A stretch of 14,519 nucleotides of DNA from a virus. Below are positions 1 to 14,481 of this stretch, in pieces (positions within the stretch are counted from its first letter, which is position 1; every line of letters begins with the position of its first letter). Location of the stretch: the UHGV virus genome UHGV-0203503. One strand, given 5' to 3'. The notes beneath the pieces are model-generated. The model had not been told where the DNA came from, ran no database searches, and saw only the letters and a list, made by a program, of their open reading frames with translations. A program made the position numbers and the translations under genes.

Positions 1-185
1 GTGTTGGGTGTGTTTGGCGGATTCTTCAGAAGTGTCGATTTGCGAAAAACATCAATGCCAATGTCGGTGGCGAGGCTTGTCAGTGCATCGAACTGATTTT
101 GTGTTGTCTCAGTAGTGATGTAAGGCGATATATCCACGGCATCGGTGATTCCAAGCGTTTCCATGCCGCGTTGCGATAGTTTCAT
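1..185 (-). CDS. Hypothetical protein, N-terminal 61 codons only (gene continues past the window start)
   Basis: ATG at 185-183 preceded by AGGAGG (complement of 190-195); frame open to window edge; translation MKLSQRGMETLGITDAVDISPYITTETTQNQFDALTSLATDIGIDVFRKSTLLKNPPNTPN. Not in ORF track because it is truncated. Divergent from the plus operon at 292. Confidence 0.4.
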   Translation of the reverse strand, partial: MKLSQRGMETLGITDAVDISPYITTETTQNQFDALTSLATDIGIDVFRKSTLLKNPPNTPN

Positions 186-229
186 TCTGCCTCCTGTTTA
201 AATAATGATTAATTCTATCACAACAGGTA

Positions 230-260
230 TTGACGTAGATTGAGTGGTGGTGCATAGTAT
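230..260 (+). promoter_or_regulatory. sigma70-like promoter P1 for the plus operon 292-2066
   Basis: -35 TTGACG 230-235, 17-nt spacer, -10 CATAGT 253-258 (or TAGTAT 255-260); ~30 nt leader to ATG 292. Carries an imperfect inverted repeat TTGACGTAGAT (230-240) / ATCTACATCAA (260-270). Confidence 0.4.
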
Positions 261-291
261 CTACATCAAGTGATGAGTGAGGAGAAATGAA

Positions 292-705
292 ATGGAAAAT
301 AAGCTGATTGGCAAGAATATCGTCGAAGTTAAAATTGCAGAAGATAAGCTGGCTATGCTTTTTGTTTGTGATAATGGCGAGGAACTTGTTGTTCGCGTTG
401 ATGCTGATTGCTGTTCGTATACATGGATTGAATCAGTTGAAATGCCTGCGCTAGGGTTTCCATTTACTATTATTGAGTGTGAGGATTTGGCAATGCCTGA
501 CTTGGGTGATATGCCAGGTTGTGATTACGTTCAATACTACGGAGCGAAAATCACAACCAACAAAGGTGACATGGTGATTGACTATCGCAATGATTCAAAC
601 GGATATTATGGCGGAGAAATCGTCTGGCCGGGTGAAGGTTTTTACGGCGGGGTGTTCGGACAAAACGAGTCCAACATGGACTGGAGAGATATTGAGGAAT
701 CGTAA
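292..705 (+). CDS. Hypothetical protein, 137 aa
   Basis: ORF-track frame 277-705 begins at GTG; first ATG at 292 with GGAG 281-284 at 7 nt spacing. No recognised motif. Confidence 0.5.
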   Translation: MENKLIGKNIVEVKIAEDKLAMLFVCDNGEELVVRVDADCCSYTWIESVEMPALGFPFTIIECEDLAMPDLGDMPGCDYVQYYGAKITTNKGDMVIDYRNDSNGYYGGEIVWPGEGFYGGVFGQNESNMDWRDIEES

Positions 706-707
706 TC

Positions 708-851
708 ATGGTAATAGTCAAATTCAAAGAAAACGGACGCTGCGGAGTGTTCAGCCTTGAGCAAATCAAAATCCGCCCGTGCGGTAAAGTGGTTGCGCCA
801 TTTGGTCTGGTGCAAATGCGTGAGTGCGAAACTGTTGAATATATTAAGTGA
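708..851 (+). CDS. Small hypothetical protein, 47 aa (below ORF-track cutoff)
   Basis: ATG 708 three nt after the upstream stop; GAGGAA 694-699 as RBS; fills the 706-856 gap between track ORFs; translation MVIVKFKENGRCGVFSLEQIKIRPCGKVVAPFGLVQMRECETVEYIK. Confidence 0.3.
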   Translation: MVIVKFKENGRCGVFSLEQIKIRPCGKVVAPFGLVQMRECETVEYIK

Positions 852-856
852 GGTTG

Positions 857-1150
857 ATGATGGAAGAATTTAAAGGCACGAGTGGAAAATGGGGGGTTGT
901 TGCTGGTGATGATAACGCACCTGATGTTATCTCTGATATTGGTGTTGAGGTTGCATTCACTCCAACATATAACGGTGATAAAGCAGAACAATGGCATAAC
1001 GCAAAATTAATCGCATCATCGCCAGAGTTGCTCTCAGCACTCCAGCAACTACTGGAAATCTACGACGACAACTCCGGCAAAGTCTGGACAACATCAAGCA
1101 AGCGTCGCGCTCTGGATAATGCGCGTGCAGCGGTTAACAAGGCGTTGTGA
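857..1150 (+). CDS. Hypothetical protein, ~97 aa
   Basis: Track ORF 848-1150 starts at GTG; in-frame ATGs at 857 and 860 follow GAGG 850-853; the upstream small ORF stop (849-851) overlaps. Confidence 0.45.
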   Translation: MMEEFKGTSGKWGVVAGDDNAPDVISDIGVEVAFTPTYNGDKAEQWHNAKLIASSPELLSALQQLLEIYDDNSGKVWTTSSKRRALDNARAAVNKAL

Positions 1151-1159
1151 GAAACAAAA

Positions 1160-1753
1160 ATGAAACTCATCGACCTGTTAGTTCAAGAATTACCTAAGCG
1201 TGGTGGGTGGCCTAATGGTGCAGTATGCGCAACACAAGATAAAGATGGAGAAGTTTACTTCTCTGAAGGCGAAACACCTGAATTTGGCTTGGTGGCCTGG
1301 CATGATGGAGACTGGTGCGGAAATGAGTTTCACACAATTACGGCCACCGATTACGACACTGCCATCATTACTCGCGCCCAGTACGAATCAGCACTCGCAG
1401 CATCGCAAAAGCCAGCATGGAACGGCGAAGGTCTGCCTCCAGTTGGGTGTGATTGTGAATGTCATGTCGATGAAGGAATAATTCATTGCGTTGTGGTTGG
1501 TTATGATTTTGATGGCAAAGCTGTTGTGATGCGCAATGTTCCAGTGCGCAAATACTTCTCAATTCAGGCTAACTCAGGGCGCATAAGACCACTACGCACA
1601 GAAAAAGAGCGCAAGCGTGATGAGGCAGCAGAAGCCATTGGCTTTTATATGCCGGAATTTATTACCGATACGCCAAATGAGTTTTACCACGCCAAAAAGA
1701 TTTACGACGCCATCGCAGCAGGCAAGATTCCCGGAGTGAAACTGGAGGATTAA
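1160..1753 (+). CDS. Hypothetical protein, 197 aa
   Basis: ATG 1160, 9 nt after the upstream stop; long ORF in operon context; no recognised motif. Confidence 0.5.
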   Translation: MKLIDLLVQELPKRGGWPNGAVCATQDKDGEVYFSEGETPEFGLVAWHDGDWCGNEFHTITATDYDTAIITRAQYESALAASQKPAWNGEGLPPVGCDCECHVDEGIIHCVVVGYDFDGKAVVMRNVPVRKYFSIQANSGRIRPLRTEKERKRDEAAEAIGFYMPEFITDTPNEFYHAKKIYDAIAAGKIPGVKLED

Positions 1754-1755
1754 TT

Positions 1756-1989
1756 ATGTTTCCTGAGAAAATAAATATTGCTATAACACACTGGCAGACC
1801 TCTGACGGCAATGTGTTTACTGACCAGTTCGCTGCAAAGATTCATCAGGCCGTTATTGATGGTGATGCGCGAATTTGCCTAGAATGTAATGGCACTGGAA
1901 TGGTTGACCCATATTGCGATGGGAGGACTGAGTTTCCATGCCAAGAGTGCACTGGTGGTTACCAATTTAAAAATGAAACGTGGAAATGA
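1756..1989 (+). CDS. Small Cys-rich (zinc-ribbon-like) protein, 77 aa
   Basis: GGAGG 1744-1748 seven nt before ATG 1756; Cys spacing ICLECNG...YCDG...FPCQECTGG (CxxC...C...CxxC) suggests a metal-binding ribbon. Confidence 0.5.
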   Translation: MFPEKINIAITHWQTSDGNVFTDQFAAKIHQAVIDGDARICLECNGTGMVDPYCDGRTEFPCQECTGGYQFKNETWK

Positions 1990-2066
1990 TTAAGACAATA
2001 TTCAGCGTCGTAGAGATATTGTGCTATGCGATAATAATATTCGTTCTGTGTATGCTCATAGGATAA
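1986..2066 (+). CDS. Possible 26-aa hydrophobic peptide, start overlapping the upstream stop (ATGA)
   Basis: ATG 1986-1988 overlaps TGA 1987-1989; translation MIKTIFSVVEILCYAIIIFVLCMLIG; ends 5 nt before terminator stem. Could be chance in AT-rich sequence. Confidence 0.2.
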   Translation: MIKTIFSVVEILCYAIIIFVLCMLIG

Positions 2067-2071
2067 AACCA

Positions 2072-2098
2072 AGCCCTCACTTAGAGGGCTTTTTGTTT
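2072..2098. terminator. Bidirectional intrinsic terminator between convergent transcription units
   Basis: Stem AGCCCTC (2072-2078) / GAGGGCT (2084-2090), 5-nt loop, TTTTTGTTT on the plus side; minus-side tail TTGGTTTTA. Overlaps the stop of the head-morphogenesis gene. Confidence 0.55.
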
Positions 2099-3027
2099 GC
2101 TGATTGCCATGCCTCTCGCTGCTTATCAAGTCTTTCCTGCGATGACTCAAGAATAACTGGCTTTCCATCCATTAGCAGTGTTGGTACTTGTGCGCAATGA
2201 CAATTCCTTCGGTTGGCAACTTCACTATAGAACGTGTCGATTTCTTCTGGCGTGTAAAACCTCCCGTGTCTCGCCGCGTGAGTATGGCGGGTCGTGCGCA
2301 TTAATGCCGATTGCCACAGCATTACCGTCTCAATACCTAACTCTTCGCGCGCTTCAATGACTTCTCTCCTGTTTGCCTGCCGCAGCGTTCCGGTGATTTC
2401 TGTTTGCGCCAACTGTTTTGCGTAACTGTGAGACACATCGATACGCTTAACGATGTCGGCTTCAACATCACGAGGATTAGCGCCTCGAGCAATGCCTTCC
2501 ATAATGACAGATGCCAGTTGCTGACGGGAATAATCACTCAATCCGCGCCAGTCTGAATATCCTTGCGTGTACGCTAGCTGGAGTCGATTCAGATAAGGCT
2601 CACTGTAGAGTATCGCGGCAATCGGCCTCTGCTCGGCATAAACCGGAGACAGGCTTGATAGCTCTGAGTTAGCCTTCTGCGTGCCAGCATGATGCGCATC
2701 ACCAATGAACACATTAGCCCACATCCTGCCGTGACCGAAGTCGTCACCTTCAAGCAGAATCTCGTCAATCAGCGCCTGCAACTCATCCATGAAAGTGGCA
2801 GCCCGCGCACTACTAAAATCGTAGAAATACAGACCGCTTGATTCTGCGTTGGTCTGGCTGCTCGGAATGGTGCGAAACAACTCAAGCGCACGAGTCCTGA
2901 GTTGTTTGTATTTGCGCGTTATCACCTTATCCATCTTCGACAGTCGCGTTGCAGCGCCTAACGGGTCGGTCAGGCTCTGCGATATGCGCGGTTGTGGCAA
3001 CCTTGCATTAAACCGGAGTATTTTCAT
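2077..3027 (-). CDS. Phage head morphogenesis / minor capsid protein (Mu F-like, SPP1 gp7 family), ~316 aa
   Basis: Lies immediately downstream of the portal gene on the same strand; C-terminal region ([18 protein letters not shown]...) resembles Mu-F-like proteins from memory. Start set at internal ATG 3027 (GGAAGA RBS) because the track ORF start 3111 lies inside the portal gene. Confidence 0.6.
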
Positions 3028-4420
3028 TTTCGTCTTCCGGCGGCGTGTCTTCGCGATAATTTTCGTCCAGCTCAATCGGCTCCATACCCACCATGCCGCG
3101 AGCCTCATCAACAGTCAGCAATGCAGATTGACCAGCATCAAAGAACGACTTGTTCGCAGTTGCGAGCTTAGACAGCAATTCGGCCTTATCCAGCTCTGAT
3201 GGAGCCAGCAGGTCATCCCACTTAACCTTGTAGCCGTTTGCCGGGGCTTTATCGACAATGCCGAACTGAATCATGCGCTCAACGAACATTGAGATGACGT
3301 AATCAACCCATGTTTCGCGGCGCTGTTTTGCGGTCATCGCCTCCTGCATCTTGTCCTCGTCGCTCGCAAGGCGTCCGGTTTGCTGGCCAAAAATAACGGT
3401 GAACGGAAGTGCCATTGATGCGGCGAACTGGTTGGCAGCAACTTCCCATGTTGGTTTCGGGTCGGCTGGTGTCACAGCGAGAACTTTTGCATCCGCGCCC
3501 ATTGTGAACATGGCTGCGTCAATCCCGGAGTTCAGCGCATCAATGTTCTCATTCATGATGTCGGTAAGCTCTTCAATATCGACACCCATTGACTGAGCTA
3601 GGCTTGCTGGCGTTACGTTATCCTTCGTGTAGTTAACCGCCAGTTGGCGGCTAGCATTCTTCAGGAAGCCCTCTGCGGAGCTACCGGAAACCTTAGCCAT
3701 GTCGATAAGGCTGTTGTAGCCAGCACGCAGCATCGGGATGCCACTGAACATACTACCGTCAAAACTACCCTCAGCCAGAATGATGATGCGGTCTGGGTGA
3801 ATCTGTACGGAACGCTCAGGCTTGCCATTGCTGTCGAAATCTTCCACGGCGCTTTCCTGGTATTCGTACATCTCAGGCATACCGTAGTCTTCGCTGGTTT
3901 CGTCGTTATTCCACGCGCTGACGCGGAGCTGCTCCTCCCATACAGGAATAAAGCGAACGATGGATTTATCTTTAATGCGGCGGGTTTTGGTGATGTCTAC
4001 AGGCTCACTCCACTGCTTGCCGTCGCGGATTTGCAGGATAACGGCGGAATAGCGGTTGATGGCGTTGCGCTTGTCAGCCTCCTTGATGAACGGGTAGGCG
4101 CGCTTCATCATGCCGTTGATGGACAACTCCCACGACGTTGAGTTCTTATCATCCTCTCCATCTTCAACCACTTCAGGGTATTTCTGCCAGCATTTATTAA
4201 TAATGCGGTTAATACCAGCGGCGGCAGCTGGGTGTCGTTCATAGGCATAACGGAACATCTCAGCGGTAATTTCCTGCGGGTAGCCCAGCTCCTTCCACAT
4301 GAACTCACGCTTCTGGTCAAGATTCTTCCCGCCAGCACAAAGCCTCTGCTGCTGAATTGCCCGGTTATTGTTCGCTACGCGGTCGCGTATATAGGCGTTT
4401 AATGCATCAATTTTTGACAT
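3008..4420 (-). CDS. Phage portal protein, 470 aa
   Basis: 470-aa ORF between terminase large subunit and Mu-F-like gene in the conserved order; acidic C-terminus. Assignment is by position and size, not by a recognised motif. Confidence 0.6.
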
Positions 4421-4431
4421 ATGTCACCAAT

Positions 4432-4458
4432 AAAAAATCCCATCACGTTGGATGGGAT
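4432..4458 (-). terminator. Intrinsic terminator (minus strand) between the small-gene cassette and the portal gene
   Basis: Stem ATCCCATC (4437-4444) / GATGGGAT (4451-4458), 6-nt loop, followed on the minus strand by TTTTT (complement of A-run 4432-4436). Sits 11 nt upstream of the portal ATG. Confidence 0.5.
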
Positions 4459-4493
4459 TATAACACGAGCTTGCAGTGGCTATGGTTGATGGC

Positions 4494-4724
4494 TTATTCT
4501 CTCCGTGATGGTATTGCAATCATCGGTTGCGTTTGTCTTTGCATGATAGATAATAGCTCGCCCTTGTAATGTTCTGTAATTTCATTTTGCCCTTTCATGT
4601 AAATCAAGATGGCCTCCTGTTCGGTGACAATTCCTTGCTTAAACAAGGTTATTACTTTCCTTGCCATAGTATCGCAAAGAGATAATTCTTCAAGGTATTG
4701 AATCGGCGTTTCGCAGTTATCCAT
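4494..4724 (-). CDS. Hypothetical protein, 76 aa
   Basis: ATG 4724-4722 overlaps upstream stop (TGATG); track ORF 4494-4727 begins at GTG. Confidence 0.4.
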   Translation of the reverse strand: MDNCETPIQYLEELSLCDTMARKVITLFKQGIVTEQEAILIYMKGQNEITEHYKGELLSIMQRQTQPMIAIPSRRE

Positions 4725-4909
4725 CACTCCACCTTTTCCAGTTTATCAATAACAATATCGAACCCTTGGGATTGGAATATGGCGGCATTCTCGTTCGCCA
4801 TAAATACTTCGAAAGCATGAACTGCGTTTGACGCAGCTATCACCATAGACATTTTTGCGGCAACTTCACCACCACCAAGCACTTCAGCATGAATAAAATA
4901 AACGCTCAT
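4724..4909 (-). CDS. Hypothetical protein, 61 aa
   Basis: ATG 4909-4907 overlaps upstream stop (TGATG); translationally coupled chain. Confidence 0.4.
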   Translation of the reverse strand: MSVYFIHAEVLGGGEVAAKMSMVIAASNAVHAFEVFMANENAAIFQSQGFDIVIDKLEKVE

Positions 4910-5097
4910 CACTCAATCTCCTCACCATTAACCCAGCGTTGCAGGACTTCGATTAGCTGCGCGGCTTGCTGTTTGTCGATGCCAATAGAGTTAACATCAT
5001 CGCCTTCACGGAATGAAGTAAGCATAATGATAGGGTAATCACCAAAACTATGACTAACTTGCAGTTCATAGCAATTTTTTGTTTCACCAATAATCAT
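4909..5097 (-). CDS. Hypothetical protein, 62 aa
   Basis: ATG 5097-5095 preceded by GAGG at 7 nt spacing, inside the repeated element TTGAGGTGATGTGATG. Confidence 0.4.
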   Translation of the reverse strand: MIIGETKNCYELQVSHSFGDYPIIMLTSFREGDDVNSIGIDKQQAAQLIEVLQRWVNGEEIE

Positions 5098-5152
5098 CAC
5101 ATCACCTCAACAAAGTTCACCATCAGTTACCACCAACAACTTCTGCCATAAT

Positions 5153-5356
5153 TTATTTCTGAACATGATTAATCCACCATGCGGCAATTGCTGAGAAAAT
5201 CCACAAGCCGATAACAAGCCTGAAAACCTGCCAATTCAGTATGTCATCAATACTTGGCGCCTCCCATCTAATCAGCCAGATAAGCGGGAAAGCAAGCGCC
5301 AGTGCAATGGTGTACTTAATACCAATAAGAAGAAAATCTCTTAGGAAGCCTCTCAT
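5153..5356 (-). CDS. Small membrane protein, 67 aa, two predicted transmembrane helices
   Basis: Hydrophobic stretches IKYTIALALAFPLIWLI and VFRLVIGLWIFSAIAAWWI; ATG 5356 preceded by the same GAGGTGATGTG element. Confidence 0.45.
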   Translation of the reverse strand: MRGFLRDFLLIGIKYTIALALAFPLIWLIRWEAPSIDDILNWQVFRLVIGLWIFSAIAAWWINHVQK

Positions 5357-5365
5357 CACATCACC

Positions 5366-5560
5366 TCAACCAATCGGAAACCACTTATCAATGACATCAT
5401 GGAATTTTTGCATAACCTTTGCCTGCCAAAATTCAAGCCACTCAAATAAATTTCTTGCACCAGAAAAGAAAACCCACAATAACCACACAGGAACAAAAAA
5501 TGGCAGTAAAGCAATCCTTCCGATCTTGCTTCTGTTGCTCATCCTGCTTATCTTAAGCAT
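5366..5560 (-). CDS. Small membrane protein, 64 aa, one predicted transmembrane helix
   Basis: Hydrophobic stretch IALLPFFVPVWLLWVFF; ATG 5560 directly after upstream stop, preceded by GAGGGTGATGTG. Confidence 0.45.
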   Translation of the reverse strand: MLKISRMSNRSKIGRIALLPFFVPVWLLWVFFSGARNLFEWLEFWQAKVMQKFHDVIDKWFPIG

Positions 5561-5564
5561 CACA

Positions 5565-5771
5565 TCACCCTCTCAAAAAATCATTCTTGCAGCAGATACC
5601 CTTGTACCCGCGCTTCTCCTGCAGATTAACGAAAACATCATCCAGAACGCGCAGCAGGAAATCCTCGTCAATATCATACCGACGGCAAATCACCTCATCA
5701 GGTACACCAGCCCGCGCCAGTGAATAAACCTGCTCTTTTTCCTCCTGTGTGAATCCTGCATAGCTGCGCAT
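5565..5771 (-). CDS. Hypothetical protein, 68 aa (first gene of the minus cassette)
   Basis: ATG 5771 with GGAG at 8 nt spacing; ~24 nt downstream of predicted promoter P2b. Confidence 0.45.
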   Translation of the reverse strand: MRSYAGFTQEEKEQVYSLARAGVPDEVICRRYDIDEDFLLRVLDDVFVNLQEKRGYKGICCKNDFLRG

Positions 5772-5801
5772 AGTGATATCTCCGATAAGCCTGATGTAGA
5801 T

Positions 5802-5830
5802 ATACTATGCGCTCGGTGTAGATTGGTCAA
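5802..5830 (-). promoter_or_regulatory. sigma70-like promoter P2b for the minus six-gene cassette
   Basis: On the minus strand: -35 TTGACC (complement of 5825-5830), 17-nt spacer, -10 TAGTAT (complement of 5802-5807), then ATCTACATCA as in P1. Confidence 0.4.
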
Positions 5831-5868
5831 GTGTGGCGATGAGGATTTATCGACATTAACAGTAAATG

Positions 5869-5897
5869 TTGACGTAGATATGTTGGTGACGTAGAAT
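5869..5897 (+). promoter_or_regulatory. Near-consensus sigma70 promoter P2 for the plus two-gene cassette
   Basis: -35 TTGACG 5869-5874, exactly 17 nt spacer, -10 TAGAAT 5892-5897; divergent from P2b. Confidence 0.5.
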
Positions 5898-5930
5898 CAT
5901 CTTATCGAAAAGAGATTAAGGAACAAGAGA

Positions 5931-6086
5931 ATGTTTGAGACTAAAAAAGAATGCGAAGCGTATATTGCCGAAACTTATGGTGCTGACTACGTTAAATTTG
6001 GCATCGTTACCGCCCAGAAAGTCGGCCCAACAATCGCCAAGATGCTTGGTATTAAAGAAGGTTACTACCCATCAAATGCCTACTAA
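5931..6086 (+). CDS. Small hypothetical protein, 51 aa (below ORF-track cutoff)
   Basis: ATG 5931 preceded by AAGGAA (5918-5923); translation MFETKKECEAYIAETYGADYVKFGIVTAQKVGPTIAKMLGIKEGYYPSNAY; alternative reading to the TTG-initiated 117-aa track ORF. Confidence 0.4.
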   Translation: MFETKKECEAYIAETYGADYVKFGIVTAQKVGPTIAKMLGIKEGYYPSNAY

Positions 6087-6090
6087 TTAC

Positions 6091-6288
6091 ATGCCGAGAT
6101 GCCTTCGTGAAATACCGAAGGCAAAAGTGAAGCCAAGAAATCAAGCAATAAAAGAGGCAAAGATTGAGGCTTTCAATATTGCCATTTCGATAATAAAAGA
6201 GAGATGCAGAGATGAAAAGTCTGAACGCGTTAAATCAAACATGTATGCAGCTGTGAGTGATATATCAAGATTGAGAGATGAGCTTTAA
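6091..6288 (+). CDS. Small hypothetical protein, 65 aa
   Basis: ATG 6091 in the frame of track ORF 5935-6288; basic, helix-like sequence (MPRCLREIPKAKVKPRNQAIKEAKIEAF...); RBS weak, start uncertain (an in-frame ATG at 6076 is also possible). Confidence 0.3.
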   Translation: MPRCLREIPKAKVKPRNQAIKEAKIEAFNIAISIIKERCRDEKSERVKSNMYAAVSDISRLRDEL

Positions 6289-6317
6289 GCCCTCATTTGA
6301 GGGCTTTATTTTTATCG
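6288..6317 (+). terminator. Intrinsic terminator of the plus cassette, lying 7 nt from the terL stop
   Basis: Stem AGCCCTC (6288-6294) / GAGGGCT (6299-6305), loop ATTT, followed by TTATTTTTAT on plus; no T-tract on the minus side. Confidence 0.55.
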
Positions 6318-7736
6318 CCTGCGTCGGATTAGCATTCCGCTTCCGCGCTGGACGATGTGGTCATTTAGTGCGTAACGAACGGCATCCCAGAAGTGGTTAA
6401 ATGCATCGACAATATCAGTCAGCACATTCCCCGTCAGCTTATCGACCTTGTAGCTGTACATCGTTGCTTCATTCTGCATTTCCTTGCATCGCTCGTGGAT
6501 GATGATGCTGTCACATCCGCGCAGCCACGTGACGCCATCCTCAACGCTTCCCGGCCATTTAGTGCACGGGTGAATATCGAATCCAGAGCGCTTGATGTGA
6601 CTGATAGTCTCAGGTCGAGCGCAGTCTGCATACCATCGCGCGCGCTTAGCCATAGGGAATGATTGCTCCATCGCAGCTGGCGTATCGGTAATCTCAAGGC
6701 CAACCTTGCCATACTCTCGATTAATATAAATGTTGCGCCGTCCATCTGGTAATTCTTCGATATAAACCTCAACCATCGCGGTAGGATCGGTGGAAAACCC
6801 GAAGTCCATCCCGAAGTATGGGCCATGCCATTCAGGTTTGACTTCAAAGTCATCAACGCGCCATTTGCCACCGAATACCTGCTCGTCGCTTCGCTTGTTA
6901 AAGGCTCCCATCCAAATCCAGCGGTAACGGTCGTAATCAGTTCGTTTCATTTGCTCCATGGCGGATGGCAGCGGTGTATCCCAGAACCACGGGTTGTCTG
7001 AATAGTTACATTCGATAATCAGAATTTCATCATTTTCGAATATTCCATCAACCATCTGTGAGTGATAAGGAGCAATCCAGTTTTTCCATGTCGGGTCTGT
7101 TTCCTTGTTGGGGTTAAATGAGCACCACAGCTCGGAATTGGCGGCGCGGATGGTAGGCACGAGAATGTCCCAGCTTGTCTGGCTGACGTTCTCCGCTTCC
7201 TCTACCCAACCGACGGTAATGCCAGCAAAGCCCTTAACGGTTGTCTGATTGCGATACAACCCCTTAAAGCGAAACTTTGCTTTGGTCTTCTTGTGTGTTA
7301 TCTCGTTGTTGATAACGCGAAACTCAGCTGACTCGCCTTTGCGGGCTATCTCATCAACAAGCTCCTGATAGCTTGAGTCTTCAATGGATTGCTGAATCTC
7401 ACGGAAGCAGGCAAAGCGGTCGGGTCGAAACCTTGCGCGCTCAGTAAGGATGGTGATAATTGTTCTCGTTTTCCCTGACCCACGCCCACCATAGACAAAC
7501 TTGAAACGTTTGGGGTATAGCAGACGTTCCAGCTTTGCCGGAATGAGGTGGTCGGCATGAGTGGTTGCATTGGTCACATCATCAACGCCAGTAGCGGTCA
7601 TCCTTAACCGCTTGATGACGTTTTTCTGCATGTCGCAGATACCAAAGATAGCTGATTCTGCGACATCTGTCATTGCATCATCAATCTGCGCTTCCAGCTT
7701 TTCTATTGCCAGCGCGGAGAGGCGTTTACGAGCCAT
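6312..7736 (-). CDS. terL: Phage terminase large subunit, ~474 aa
   Basis: Walker A VYGGRGSGKT, Walker B-like ITVGWVEEAE, nuclease-domain-like GMDFGFSTDP. Start set at ATG 7736 (GGAG RBS, 11-nt overlap with the terS stop) rather than track start 7805. Confidence 0.88.
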   Translation of the reverse strand: MARKRLSALAIEKLEAQIDDAMTDVAESAIFGICDMQKNVIKRLRMTATGVDDVTNATTHADHLIPAKLERLLYPKRFKFVYGGRGSGKTRTIITILTERARFRPDRFACFREIQQSIEDSSYQELVDEIARKGESAEFRVINNEITHKKTKAKFRFKGLYRNQTTVKGFAGITVGWVEEAENVSQTSWDILVPTIRAANSELWCSFNPNKETDPTWKNWIAPYHSQMVDGIFENDEILIIECNYSDNPWFWDTPLPSAMEQMKRTDYDRYRWIWMGAFNKRSDEQVFGGKWRVDDFEVKPEWHGPYFGMDFGFSTDPTAMVEVYIEELPDGRRNIYINREYGKVGLEITDTPAAMEQSFPMAKRARWYADCARPETISHIKRSGFDIHPCTKWPGSVEDGVTWLRGCDSIIIHERCKEMQNEATMYSYKVDKLTGNVLTDIVDAFNHFWDAVRYALNDHIVQRGSGMLIRRRR

Positions 7737-8172
7737 TCTGCTGCTCCAGCAATTTCTCCAGTCGTTCAAGGCGCGCGGCGAGTTCGGTAATTTCCTGAAT
7801 ATCAAGGCCAGACTTGATAATGTCTGCCATCATCTTTCCGATGTCGGCAGGAACAACGCCAGTGGATACACCCTTGATGATTGCGTCCATTTTTTGCACC
7901 GGGGTTCCGTCAGCAGGGAAGTCGAACTCCACAGGAGGAGCTACAGGCTTAGGAATTGGGTTGAGCCTCAGGAATATCTCTCGAAGCATACTGGTAGCCT
8001 GAGCGTCTTCGCATGTCATCGCCTTATTGATGTAATAAGTGACGAATTCAATCTCACTCATCGGTGTATTCGCAGCACGAAGCGCCTCAAGCAGCACAGT
8101 GCGATAGCTCTTTCCGCGCGGAGGTGGTTGATTTGTAGATGAAAATTTGTGTTTTGGATTTGGGTTTGCCAT
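7726..8172 (-). CDS. terS: Phage terminase small subunit (probable), 148 aa
   Basis: Immediately upstream of and overlapping terL; basic N-terminus and helical C-terminus; start at ATG 8172 (track ORF extends to 8247 but first ATG is at codon 26). Confidence 0.6.
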   Translation of the reverse strand: MANPNPKHKFSSTNQPPPRGKSYRTVLLEALRAANTPMSEIEFVTYYINKAMTCEDAQATSMLREIFLRLNPIPKPVAPPVEFDFPADGTPVQKMDAIIKGVSTGVVPADIGKMMADIIKSGLDIQEITELAARLERLEKLLEQQNGS

Positions 8173-8229
8173 GTCTATTGTGTTCTTTGAGTAACTCACA
8201 TACGTTAATTTTAACACATAGACGTAGAT

Positions 8230-8255
8230 AAAAAAGAACCCGCACAAGGCGGGTT
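8230..8255 (-). terminator. Intrinsic terminator (minus strand) ending the small-gene operon before terS
   Basis: Stem AACCCGC (8237-8243) / GCGGGTT (8249-8255), 5-nt loop, followed on minus by CTTTTTT (complement of 8230-8236). Confidence 0.5.
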
Positions 8256-11119: not shown

Positions 11120-11398
11120 ATGTACCCAGATGGCACTAAACTAATGTTTGCATACGAGCTGTTATCTTCAATGAAATCTGGTGAACTGGTTGGTATTCAC
11201 TTCGAGAATGAATACTCAAGCGAAATCATCAAAGGAGAAAAGGAAAATTGCCGCTCCGTGGTTATTGATGAAAAGTACCGAATGACGCACAACATGTTCA
11301 GGTCTTACTGCACCAGAATAGCCAATGAACAAGGCATGGTTATAAAAACAAAAACCAGTGAAAGCAAAAAATTCATGTATATCTGGAGAGTCCTGTGA
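11120..11398 (+). CDS. Hypothetical protein, 92 aa
   Basis: AGGAGG 11109-11114 five nt before ATG 11120; stop overlaps the next start. Confidence 0.5.
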   Translation: MYPDGTKLMFAYELLSSMKSGELVGIHFENEYSSEIIKGEKENCRSVVIDEKYRMTHNMFRSYCTRIANEQGMVIKTKTSESKKFMYIWRVL

Positions 11399-13026
11399 TG
11401 ACTGATTCAAAGAAAATCATTGAACTAAAGGAATCTCTGAAGCCAACAGGTAAGCCTGATTCTGGAAATCCACTTGATGAAATTGACGTGCAAGAATTCC
11501 GAGAAGAATACAAAATCCCGCCTGGCTCTCTTGGTGAATTCATGTGCGAGATAGAGAATCATTTTGAAAATCGCGAAGAAGGAGAGGTTTACAGATTGCC
11601 GGGTGCTATCGCTCTTGCTCAAGTGATGGCTGGAAGATACATAATTGGCCCAAGCGCAAAAAACAAGTGTGCCACGGGGACATTTATTGTTGGTCGCTCT
11701 GGCGCAGGTAAGGGTGCTCCATCTGATTTTGTTAAGGCTTACTCAGAGAATCTTGGAATCACTCCACGCGTATCAAAAAGCACAGTAACTTCATTGCGAC
11801 AAATCAAAGAGCGCCTTATTGAGGCTGATGGTTTCTTGCTTTATATCGCAGATGACTGCCCTGAACATCTTCAGGCTTGGTCAGATACGCGATCACCTCT
11901 TGGTGAAACGGCATCATGGTTCAGGACGTCCATTAGTGGCGACTGGTTCCCTGAGTCTCCTGTTGTTACATTGTTTCAGGAGAAGCTGGCCAGCGCTCAA
12001 AACCCGAAGTTAATACTCTCTGCAGCGCAGGCTCAGGGGTGGATGATACCTCGCATCGGCGAATCTGATGGCGCTATAGATTATCGTCGGCTTGCAAAAA
12101 TGAACCATGACATTGGGAGAAGATTAAATCACGCCATGCAATGTTATGACCTGTGCATTAACGAGAAGGGAATACAGAACGTAAGGTTCATTCCGTTCAT
12201 AACCGTGACCCCAGAGCAGGGAATTGCAACAGTACGGAGATGGGAAAAGGATGGTGGCATGGGGAGATCTCTTTTCATTAAAGGTCATGAACACATGCCG
12301 GAACTTAAGAATACTCCTGACATGGAAATCAATAAAACAATAATAAACGAATGGAAACCAAGAATTCCAGGTGGTTTTTTTAATGTGGAATATGCCAATG
12401 ATGGTGTTTCGAAATACTATGAGATGTTGCGCAGGCGCATAGACAAGTCAAGCAACATTCCAGGTGTAATTGGTAGCGTCGGCCCTCGCTCTGCTCAGAT
12501 GGTTATTGAGCTTGCTACTCTTTGTGCATTTGCTGATTTATCATCGCGCAATGGCATGACTCCGCAGGTAAAGGAATGCCATATTGAATGGGCATATGCA
12601 ACCGTAATGAACAGCATGTACGACCTGCGTGATTATCTGGAGGGAGAAGCAGAGTTTGATGGCCTTGAAAACACTGAGTGGGACAACATTGTTATGAAGG
12701 TTAAAAAATGCATTGAATCAAAGGCTTTCGCTGAAAAGCCTTATATTTCAGTTGTCAAAAACAAACTTTGTCGCGACAGAATCAGTAAGATAATTTCCGC
12801 TGCCGATTCAAACTCAATTCAGGTTACGCCGGATAAATTTACTTACGAGGTCATCATTGCGATATCTGAAAACAGGCATTCACCAATAGAACTCGACCCT
12901 GAGAACCCATCAAACATCCGGCTTTCTGGTGGCGGTTCATGGTCTGGATTGCGCATGAATGCATCAGTCAGGAATATCCTGTCATCAGCAATGAAGCGAA
13001 TGAGATTTATGAGGAACTTGAAATGA
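11398..13026 (+). CDS. Large hypothetical protein, 542 aa, with a glycine-rich loop GRSGAGKG and a hhhhDD motif (FLLYIADD); function unknown
   Basis: Longest ORF in window; ATG 11398 overlaps upstream TGA; GGAG 11384-11387. The glycine-rich loop is not a canonical Walker A (K followed by G, not S/T), so no NTPase call is made. Confidence 0.6.
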   Translation: MTDSKKIIELKESLKPTGKPDSGNPLDEIDVQEFREEYKIPPGSLGEFMCEIENHFENREEGEVYRLPGAIALAQVMAGRYIIGPSAKNKCATGTFIVGRSGAGKGAPSDFVKAYSENLGITPRVSKSTVTSLRQIKERLIEADGFLLYIADDCPEHLQAWSDTRSPLGETASWFRTSISGDWFPESPVVTLFQEKLASAQNPKLILSAAQAQGWMIPRIGESDGAIDYRRLAKMNHDIGRRLNHAMQCYDLCINEKGIQNVRFIPFITVTPEQGIATVRRWEKDGGMGRSLFIKGHEHMPELKNTPDMEINKTIINEWKPRIPGGFFNVEYANDGVSKYYEMLRRRIDKSSNIPGVIGSVGPRSAQMVIELATLCAFADLSSRNGMTPQVKECHIEWAYATVMNSMYDLRDYLEGEAEFDGLENTEWDNIVMKVKKCIESKAFAEKPYISVVKNKLCRDRISKIISAADSNSIQVTPDKFTYEVIIAISENRHSPIELDPENPSNIRLSGGGSWSGLRMNASVRNILSSAMKRMRFMRNLK

Positions 13027-13812: not shown

Positions 13813-14481
13813 TTACCTGCTTACTGACATTTTCTCTATCAACTCGCCAGCGTCATAAATCTTTCTCCTGATTCTCTTTGCCATCCTGATAGTGTCAGCA
13901 TCATCAGGCAACATCACCGGAAGCCCTGCGTTTTCCGCAGAGCACAGTTCGTCAAATTTATAATTAACTATGCAGCGTAACCGTGCTTTATTCTCATCGC
14001 TAACAGAACGCACTACTTCCCACATGTTTTCCGGCGACCAGCAGCACCAGACATGCGCGCCAGTGAAGTAATGGCATTTCCACGCATCTGCATAATCAGA
14101 CACAAGATAAATAAACTTTCCGTTTTCTTCACCGATTGGGCTTATCGCGCCGCGCGTGAGTTTGCCGTTGATGGCTGAGTCCTTGTTGTATCCTGCTTTG
14201 TAGAATGTTCTGAACGCATCACCATCCATGCCAATGAATGCCACGTTGCACGGCTTCATTGTGTCAGCGTGCACCATCTCAACCGCAATAAGCTCTCCAG
14301 ATTTGCCTCTGACGACGTTAACGTCGCAACCAATACCATTTATCAAAGTCCACTCATTCATCGCGACACTCTTCGTTTTAGACATGATTGCTGCGACTTC
14401 CCGCTCTGTGATGAAGTCATCGTTGTAATTTATCTTCGGCAGTTCCTTCCTGATAGCCTCCAGCTTTTCGCGTGGATTCAT
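13813..14481 (-). CDS. Hypothetical protein, at least 222 aa (true start may lie beyond the window end)
   Basis: Track ORF; the reading frame stays open upstream of the first ATG to the window edge (..PEALEALGGFLN-M..); Cys/Trp-rich segment HVWCCWSPENMW; no recognised family. Confidence 0.45.
   Translation of the reverse strand: MNPREKLEAIRKELPKINYNDDFITEREVAAIMSKTKSVAMNEWTLINGIGCDVNVVRGKSGELIAVEMVHADTMKPCNVAFIGMDGDAFRTFYKAGYNKDSAINGKLTRGAISPIGEENGKFIYLVSDYADAWKCHYFTGAHVWCCWSPENMWEVVRSVSDENKARLRCIVNYKFDELCSAENAGLPVMLPDDADTIRMAKRIRRKIYDAGELIEKMSVSR

Follow-up and report, generated by a model that had tools for sequence, protein, structure and literature searches.

The separation of the portal and MuF genes from the capsid genes is, judged by all relatives compared here, universal in the clade to which the DNA stretch analysed in this study belongs, and it represents the normal, conserved layout of these phages. 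The stretch comprises 14,519 nt of viral DNA and is referred to as the window throughout. We are highly confident that the window was derived from a virulent Sf11/swi2-like (broadly Jersey-like) enterobacterial siphophage in which the head operon is split into cassettes. Its source was most likely an ordinary complete phage, whose own capsid genes we infer from those of its relatives.

Gene content of the window and gene order in its relatives

In a megablast search, the window matched 190 phage records. The best nucleotide match was Escherichia phage vB_EcoS_swi2 (hereafter swi2), whose match spanned 70% of the window with an identity of 90.8%, followed by phages C1, SeSz-2, DS8, and the BASEL phages Bas77-80. 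Parts of the window were matched at 100% identity by two short Logan contigs of run SRR7892428, one (L008) corresponding to positions 1-2832 and the other (L009) to positions 5586-7822, and the window has its left end where a contig of this run ends. An exact-protein look-up showed that identical MuF and portal proteins are not on record, and exact 40-mer scans for the window sequence in viral, metagenome, and genome contig collections returned nothing. No RNA family match was obtained when the window was searched against Rfam.

On the gene map, a putative small terminase gene (8247..7726) is located on the minus strand together with the large terminase gene (TerL; Terminase_3, 3C; 7736..6312) and six small genes between TerL and the portal gene (5771..4494), with the portal and MuF genes further downstream. 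The lysis cassette begins at the left edge with a lysozyme-like gene, of which the start falls within the window (3..185, minus strand; Pfam Phage_lysozyme, E = 5.4e-7) and the remainder runs off it; it shares 87-95% identity with the first 'endolysin' ORF of swi2, Bas80, and STGO-35-1. Primase-like replication genes occur at 11395-13026 and 13813-14481 in the right part of the window. The gene order of the window is collinear with that of swi2, Bas80, Sf11, and 69 IMG/VR loci, and it displays the arrangement that is characteristic of the group, i.e., TerL, antisense genes, small genes, portal-MuF, antisense slot, and lysis cassette. Pfam and PHROG searches of the ORFs identified no scaffold, protease, or capsid gene within the window, bearing out an earlier note on this DNA according to which the head module stops after the MuF-like gene. 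A tail gene was likewise not found inside the window.

The MuF-like coding sequence (3027..2077, minus strand) encodes a protein of 316 aa resembling MuF/SPP1-gp7-like minor head proteins. Residues 170-280 matched the Pfam family PF04233, Phage_Mu_F (E = 5.2e-10; 40.5 bits vs. a gathering cut-off of 29.6), and the full-length protein matched the PHROG family phrog_758, 'head morphogenesis' (E = 1.5e-116). The gene directly follows the portal gene (3008..4420; 470 aa; PF06381, E = 5e-21; phrog_146, E = 1.5e-107) and shares its strand; the ATG of the MuF gene overlaps the portal end by 20 nt. The same 20-nt overlap is present in the annotations of Bas80 and Sf11. While the portal protein is 94-97% identical to those of swi2, Bas80, and STGO-35-1, MuF is 96% identical to gp62 of Sf11, a phage that is also among the IMG/VR loci (L017). 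Sf11 gp62 has been found in purified virions by mass spectrometry (PMC12724387). The family matches indicate that the protein belongs to the Phage_Mu_F/SPP1 gp7 family of head morphogenesis proteins. As a portal-associated minor head protein, MuF would act in trans, and adjacency to the capsid genes would therefore not be required.

The split layout was found in the complete genomes of swi2, Bas80, and Sf11, in stretches of 17-19 kb from Klebsiella phage VLCpiS13b and Salmonella phage STGO-35-1, and in a 38-kb Logan contig that carries a DUF7448 gene identical to that of the window. In these phages, TerL is followed by between one and three antisense genes and a group of small genes; portal-MuF comes next, then an antisense block, the lysis cassette, and further small genes in both orientations. 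The latter are followed by genes for a 470-aa scaffold/protease-like protein, a 155-aa decoration protein, and a 356-aa capsid protein, all on the MuF strand. The capsid protein of swi2 matched PDB entry 9ocb_A, the major capsid protein of Sf11 (E = 4e-233). A PDB sequence search with MuF and the 470-aa scaffold/protease-like protein gave no significant match, only weak matches of the coiled-coil type being obtained with the C-terminal part of the latter.

Marker genes were located by tblastn in 69 IMG/VR loci with MuF proteins that share 64-97% identity with that of the window; most of these loci are derived from contigs of 45-49 kb. In all 69 loci, the marker-gene homologues lay on the MuF strand. 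In 67 of 67 loci, the lysis cassette started 211-2512 bp past MuF (median 1653); the start of the 470-aa gene was located 4.5-8.0 kb downstream of MuF (median 6.9 kb, n = 59), and that of the capsid gene at a distance of 6.4-9.9 kb (median 8.8 kb, n = 55). The 470-aa gene was present in every one of the 59 relatives whose sequence reaches far enough. Going by these distances, the genes for the 470-aa, decoration, and capsid proteins would be expected on the minus strand, in the sequence to the left of the window. A split structural module, which the earlier note had offered as one explanation for the missing genes, was thus recovered in every relative examined, with the scaffold/protease-like, decoration, and capsid genes located 4.5-10 kb past MuF; the comparison of synteny that the note had proposed places the capsid genes of the relatives downstream in an arrangement common to characterised phages. 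The layout itself is already known in that it rests on deposited annotations and on the structural paper on Sf11. A published statement of it was not found in the papers on Salmonella and Escherichia phages consulted here.

Sf11 (Cedarrivervirus; MF158038; PDB 9OCB/9OCC/9YIN) has the same gene order, a portal protein of 470 aa, and a MuF protein of 316 aa. It is a plaque-forming Shigella phage for which a whole-virion cryo-EM structure with a T=7 capsid has been determined, and mass spectrometry of the virions identified the capsid protein gp39 and the 470-residue portal protein along with the 316-residue gp62 (PMC12724387). Therefore, a phage with the interrupted layout builds normal heads and uses MuF. 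Sf11 differs from the window in that its portal protein and TerL are merely 69% and 60% identical, respectively, its antisense slot has a different content (gp58-61, including an HNH endonuclease), and its replication genes are partly non-homologous. The layout of swi2 (Swiduovirus; NC_054649) is also the same, with MuF, portal, and TerL being 95%, 97%, and 97% identical to the window proteins. However, swi2 lacks both the DUF7448 gene and the gene for a 77-aa zinc-ribbon protein, and its homologues of p1160, another accessory gene, and of the putative small terminase are 39% and 49% identical, respectively.

Predicted terminator and promoters of the cassettes

Terminator scoring and folding predicted a bidirectional intrinsic terminator at the end of MuF, with the hairpin located at 2071..2091 on both strands and the MuF stop codon falling within it. 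The sequence, AAGCCCTC-ACTTA-GAGGGCTT, is terminator-like in either direction. The stem comprises 8 bp with five GC pairs and is flanked by the T-tails TTTGTTTGCT (plus strand) and GGTTTTATCC (minus strand). Folding yielded -18.1 kcal/mol for the plus strand (z -2.8) and -15.8 kcal/mol for the minus strand (z -2.0), the minus-strand form having a weak U-tract, GGTTTTAT. The earlier note had placed a bidirectional terminator at 2072-2098; a hairpin does occur on both strands, but the coordinates had to be revised to those given above, with the plus-strand T-tail extending to ~2101. Read 5' to 3' on the MuF strand, the hairpin is identical in the five closest aligned phages, including swi2, Bas80, Sf11, and the Logan contig, and in the sixth, a Klebsiella phage, a different stem occupies the same place. 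In 63 of the 69 relatives, a perfect hairpin of 6 bp or more overlapped the MuF stop, and covarying stems occurred among these phages (GCCCTC/GAGGGC, GCCGCC/GGCGGC, and GCCACC/GGTGGC). Between the last plus-strand gene and the hairpin lies a non-coding spacer of 81 nt (1990..2070, plus strand), which alignment and folding suggest to be the 3' UTR of the plus-strand block and which is kept in swi2 and Bas80 despite a different preceding gene. Consensus and conservation together point to a hairpin that would terminate both the portal-MuF unit and the convergent block, each on its own strand.

Upstream of the portal gene, alignment revealed a composite element (4436..4465, minus strand) consisting of an extended -10, a hairpin, and a T-run. 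The extended -10, TGTTATAAT, at 4465-4457 is a perfect match and overlaps the hairpin and T-run at 4459-4436. The element is invariant across seven aligned phages, and the DNA further upstream is unrelated; compensatory changes were observed in the hairpin stems among the aligned phages. The motif TGnTAnAAT precedes the portal gene by at most 90 nt in 64 of 64 relatives. Transcripts starting from TGTTATAAT would miss the 5' arm of the hairpin, and the element could halt transcription arriving from upstream and then restart it. The portal-MuF pair would accordingly represent a self-contained cassette that starts at the extended -10 of the 4465-4436 element and ends at the hairpin at 2071-2091.

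The lysozyme-like gene and the plus-strand block are separated by a divergent region of 106 nt (186-291). A putative extended -10 promoter (TGaTAGAAT; 212..220, minus strand) was read from the sequence before the lysis cassette and is conserved in a relative with an empty slot (L028); TGnTAnAAT at most 90 nt upstream of the lysis cassette was found in only 33 of 67 relatives. For the accessory block, promoter scoring predicted a promoter-like site, TTGACG-N17-CATAGT, at 230..268 on the plus strand, which includes the motif CATAGTATCTACATCA. Two copies of this motif are present in the window (253-268, plus strand; 5792-5809, minus strand) vs. 0 expected, and TTGACGTAGAT has 5 matches in the window vs. 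0.21 expected. Promoter-like sites with CATAGTAT(AT)CTACATCA precede both the plus-strand block and the minus-strand block of small genes at 5771..4494. The accessory slot would be driven from this divergent region, which it would have in common with the lysis cassette. Promoter and terminator functions are predicted throughout from consensus sequences and their conservation.

The antisense slot between MuF and the lysis cassette

Five small plus-strand genes converge on the MuF hairpin. The first (292..705) encodes a DUF7448 protein of 137 aa (PF24240, E = 4e-21), and the second (708..851) a protein of 47 aa that is 85-87% identical to small ORFs in the corresponding position of swi2, Bas80, and STGO-35-1. 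The Logan record likewise lists the second ORF as a gene. The product of the third gene (860..1150; 96 aa) belongs to phrog_1273 (function unknown), has a precomputed PF27050 match, and is 46-68% identical to the products of slot genes in relatives; an in-frame GTG at 848 would extend it to 100 aa. The fourth gene, p1160 (1160..1753; 197 aa; phrog_7798, function unknown, E = 2e-58), is semi-conserved, as members of a p1160-like family with lengths of 101-344 aa occur in 58 of 67 slots. The fifth gene (1756..1989; 77 aa; phrog_12574) encodes a CxxC zinc-ribbon protein with a weak, sub-threshold similarity to Anti-TRAP/DnaJ zinc fingers and is present in just 3 of the 67 slots. A convergent operon had been described earlier as spanning 292-2066. 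In our analysis this block comprises five small plus-strand genes, but coding ends at 1989 and the following positions up to 2070 are non-coding.

The 67 slots of the IMG/VR relatives displayed 43 gene architectures built from 39 protein clusters, the combination found in the window being unique. None of the 67 slots contained DUF7448; an identical DUF7448 protein is encoded at the same position in the 38-kb Logan contig (L010). In the empty-slot relative, the slot is reduced to 211 bp that still comprise the hairpin and the divergent promoter region. Pfam and PHROGs assigned the slot genes only to DUF families or families of unknown function, with no match to a known anti-defence protein, and a literature search on DUF7448, PF27050, and phrog_7798 found nothing. 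The comparison of slots among the relatives indicates that the antisense slot is optional, exchangeable cargo.

A more specific reading, which we put forward only tentatively and with some doubt, is that the stretch from the MuF terminator to the lysis promoter is a dedicated cargo site, with a conserved promoter and bidirectional terminator, at which these phages exchange accessory genes. These genes might function in counter-defence, superinfection exclusion, or host takeover, and the conserved boundary elements might serve as recombination linkers. Such linkers (hairpins, extended -10, and the 81-nt spacer) would explain the independent reassortment of TerL, portal, and MuF alleles. The anti-CRISPR (acr) locus of Pseudomonas Mu-like phages is likewise an accessory insertion site among head morphogenesis genes and is usually located upstream of the protease/scaffold gene (PMC9409062). 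Pseudomonas phages such as JBD94b possess MuF homologues that are ~30% identical to that of the window. In contrast to the acr locus, the slot in the window is convergent, possesses a predicted promoter and terminator of its own, and is followed by the lysis cassette. The parallel may serve as a lead rather than as a test.

Alternative explanations and origin of the split

The window contains packaging genes and no capsid, scaffold, or tail gene, as would be expected of a defective prophage or a PICI-like satellite that keeps terminase, portal, and MuF and hijacks the capsid of a helper. An element of this kind, retaining packaging functions only, was among the possibilities raised in the earlier note. 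We consider it very improbable, as the window is collinear with, and ~90% identical to, complete lytic phages of 45-49 kb that have capsid and tail genes, and a lysis gene is located at its left edge and primase-like genes at its right, as in complete phages. No integrase gene, tRNA gene, or attachment-site candidate was detected in the window, a megablast search of 5,426 complete E. coli genomes gave no match, and GTDB genome contigs contained no exact match to the window sequence. Moreover, the relatives are plaque-forming phages, and the cryo-EM structure of the Sf11 virion and the detection of MuF in its virions (PMC12724387) also run counter to a defective or satellite element, so that this part of the note was discarded.

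The high variability of the plus-strand block, the lack of DUF7448 in the slots of 67 relatives, and the existence of a relative with an empty slot would be in line with a recent insertion private to this phage, in which a block of morons separated MuF from an otherwise adjacent scaffold/capsid cluster. However, in the window it is the lysis cassette, instead of capsid genes, that comes after the block, and even in the empty-slot relative the scaffold/protease-like gene and the capsid gene are still 4.5 kb and 6.4 kb away from MuF. In addition, the split is common to lineages whose MuF is only 49-66% identical to that of the window; therefore, the split is old and clade-wide, and a private insertion is highly unlikely to account for it. 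The probability of an assembly artefact, i.e., a chimeric join at the MuF end, appears negligible. The window does correspond to a number of short Logan contigs that stem from one run, but the lysozyme start, the plus-strand block, the hairpin, and most of MuF are included in a single contig (L008), and the same junction occurs in more than 70 independently assembled genomes. A conserved split layout in an ordinary phage is thus the reading we prefer.

Two more distant phages bear on the origin of this layout. MuF of Salmonella phage ES18 and of Erwinia phage EhrS_49 are 33% and 38% identical, respectively, to that of the window, and their portal proteins 33-40%. In both phages the genes are contiguous on one strand in the order TerS-TerL-portal-MuF-DUF2213 protein-decoration-coat-connectors-tail tube-chaperone-tape measure. 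When swi2 genes were compared with ES18 and EhrS_49 by tblastn, homologues were identified in the same order, with identities of 28-36% for the 470-aa gene, 21-31% for the capsid protein, and 27-46% for connectors, tail tube, and chaperone; the decoration protein gave no tblastn match in EhrS_49. In the window clade, by contrast, these genes are parted by the antisense slot and the lysis cassette as well as by other blocks of small genes. The inserted accessory block considered in the earlier note is likewise supported, as a hypervariable antisense slot parts MuF from the lysis cassette in the relatives, as opposed to the contiguous arrangement of ES18 and EhrS_49. Because contiguous homologues are present in these two phages, the operon of the window clade was probably split by insertions, the polarity (contiguous first) being drawn from two outgroups only. 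An ES18-type contiguous operon would have been broken by small-gene blocks and the lysis cassette into cassettes that are separately promoted and terminated.

Missing capsid genes after portal-MuF are normal in these phages and give no ground for calling a contig defective or satellite-like. The slot adjoining MuF could be mined for accessory functions. The phage group illustrates a classical contiguous head operon cut into what appear to be independently transcribed cassettes.

Hairpins and promoter-like elements of the packaging module

The hairpin AAGCCCTC-ATTT-GAGGGCTT at window 6287-6306 has a stem identical to that of the predicted bidirectional terminator hairpin (2071-2091) at the stop codon of the Mu-F/SPP1-gp7-like head morphogenesis gene (MuF). 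This stem pattern matched twice in the window, compared to 0 matches expected. The 6287-6306 hairpin is flanked by small plus-strand genes (5931-6086 and 6076-6288) and by the stop of the large terminase gene on the minus strand (6312), and represents a second convergent junction, located within the packaging module. The promoter-like regions of both small-gene blocks have the motif CATAGTAT(AT)CTACATCA in common (253-268, plus strand; 5792-5809, minus strand), and words like TTGACGTAGAT occur five times in the window while 0.21 are expected. The shared motif may represent a phage-specific promoter class.

On the minus strand, a terminator-like hairpin ends 15 nt before the start codon of the portal gene and is overlapped by a perfect extended -10 element, TGTTATAAT; hairpin and element together span 4436-4465. 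The element is kept in all relatives compared (64/64), the DNA further upstream being unrelated, and the hairpin stem displays compensatory changes among relatives. With regard to the portal gene itself, the 470-residue portal of Sf11 is given as gp42 in Table 1 of PMC12724387. According to the Sf11 GenBank record, gp63 is the 470-aa DUF1073/portal gene and gp42 a 48-aa ORF; the gp42 label is probably a numbering slip in that paper.

The antisense slot and homing-endonuclease-like genes

An 81-nt non-coding spacer (1990-2070) separates the last plus-strand gene from the 2071-2091 hairpin. From about the stop codon onward, this spacer is approximately 90% conserved in swi2 and Bas80, and the preceding gene differs. 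Spacer and hairpin together are predicted to fold with -31.7 kcal/mol (z -3.1). The variable antisense gene block between MuF and the lysis cassette (the slot) is naturally empty in the relative L028, with only 211 bp between the two (5279-5490); this empty slot still holds the divergent promoter region and a slightly degraded hairpin. The product of the window gene at 1756-1989 is 77 aa long and carries zinc-ribbon motifs of the form CxxC...CxxC. It weakly resembles Anti-TRAP and DnaJ zinc fingers, with scores below threshold, and occurs in only three of the 67 slots surveyed.

Homing-endonuclease-like genes of the T5orf172/MUG113 type were found between portal and MuF in L011 (8940-10004) and directly 3' of MuF in STGO-35-1 (L004, 6121-7023). 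A portal-MuF gap of about 1 kb, as in L011, also occurs in L029, L035, L038, and L040; the inserted gene was read in L011. HNH endonucleases are present in the antisense slots of Bas80, Sf11, and VLCpiS13b.

Lysis genes, allele reassortment, and possible capsid replacement

In swi2, Bas80, Sf11, and STGO-35-1, two overlapping ORFs open the lysis cassette (window 3-185; L001 26961-27693). The Klebsiella relatives have one full-length 145-aa lysozyme. The first of the two overlapping ORFs (92 aa) lacks the N-terminal part, since its match to the Phage_lysozyme profile is confined to positions 55-114 of 125. A Pfam search with the second (154 aa) returned nothing at E≤0.01.

Judged from identities relative to the window across the IMG/VR loci L011-L079 and L004, alleles of MuF, portal, and TerL reassort independently. 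Among loci with a MuF 92-97% identical to that of the window, portal identity was either 94-98% or 67-70%, and TerL identity was about 97, 85, or 61%. STGO-35-1 combines a MuF of 49% with a portal of 94% identity. In four Klebsiella-type relatives (L050, L053, L060, and L075), the 470-aa scaffold/protease-like gene is retained with 74-78% identity, no match to the decoration gene was obtained, and the capsid gene was only 24-25% identical. This pattern suggests that in these relatives the capsid and decoration genes were replaced inside the same framework.
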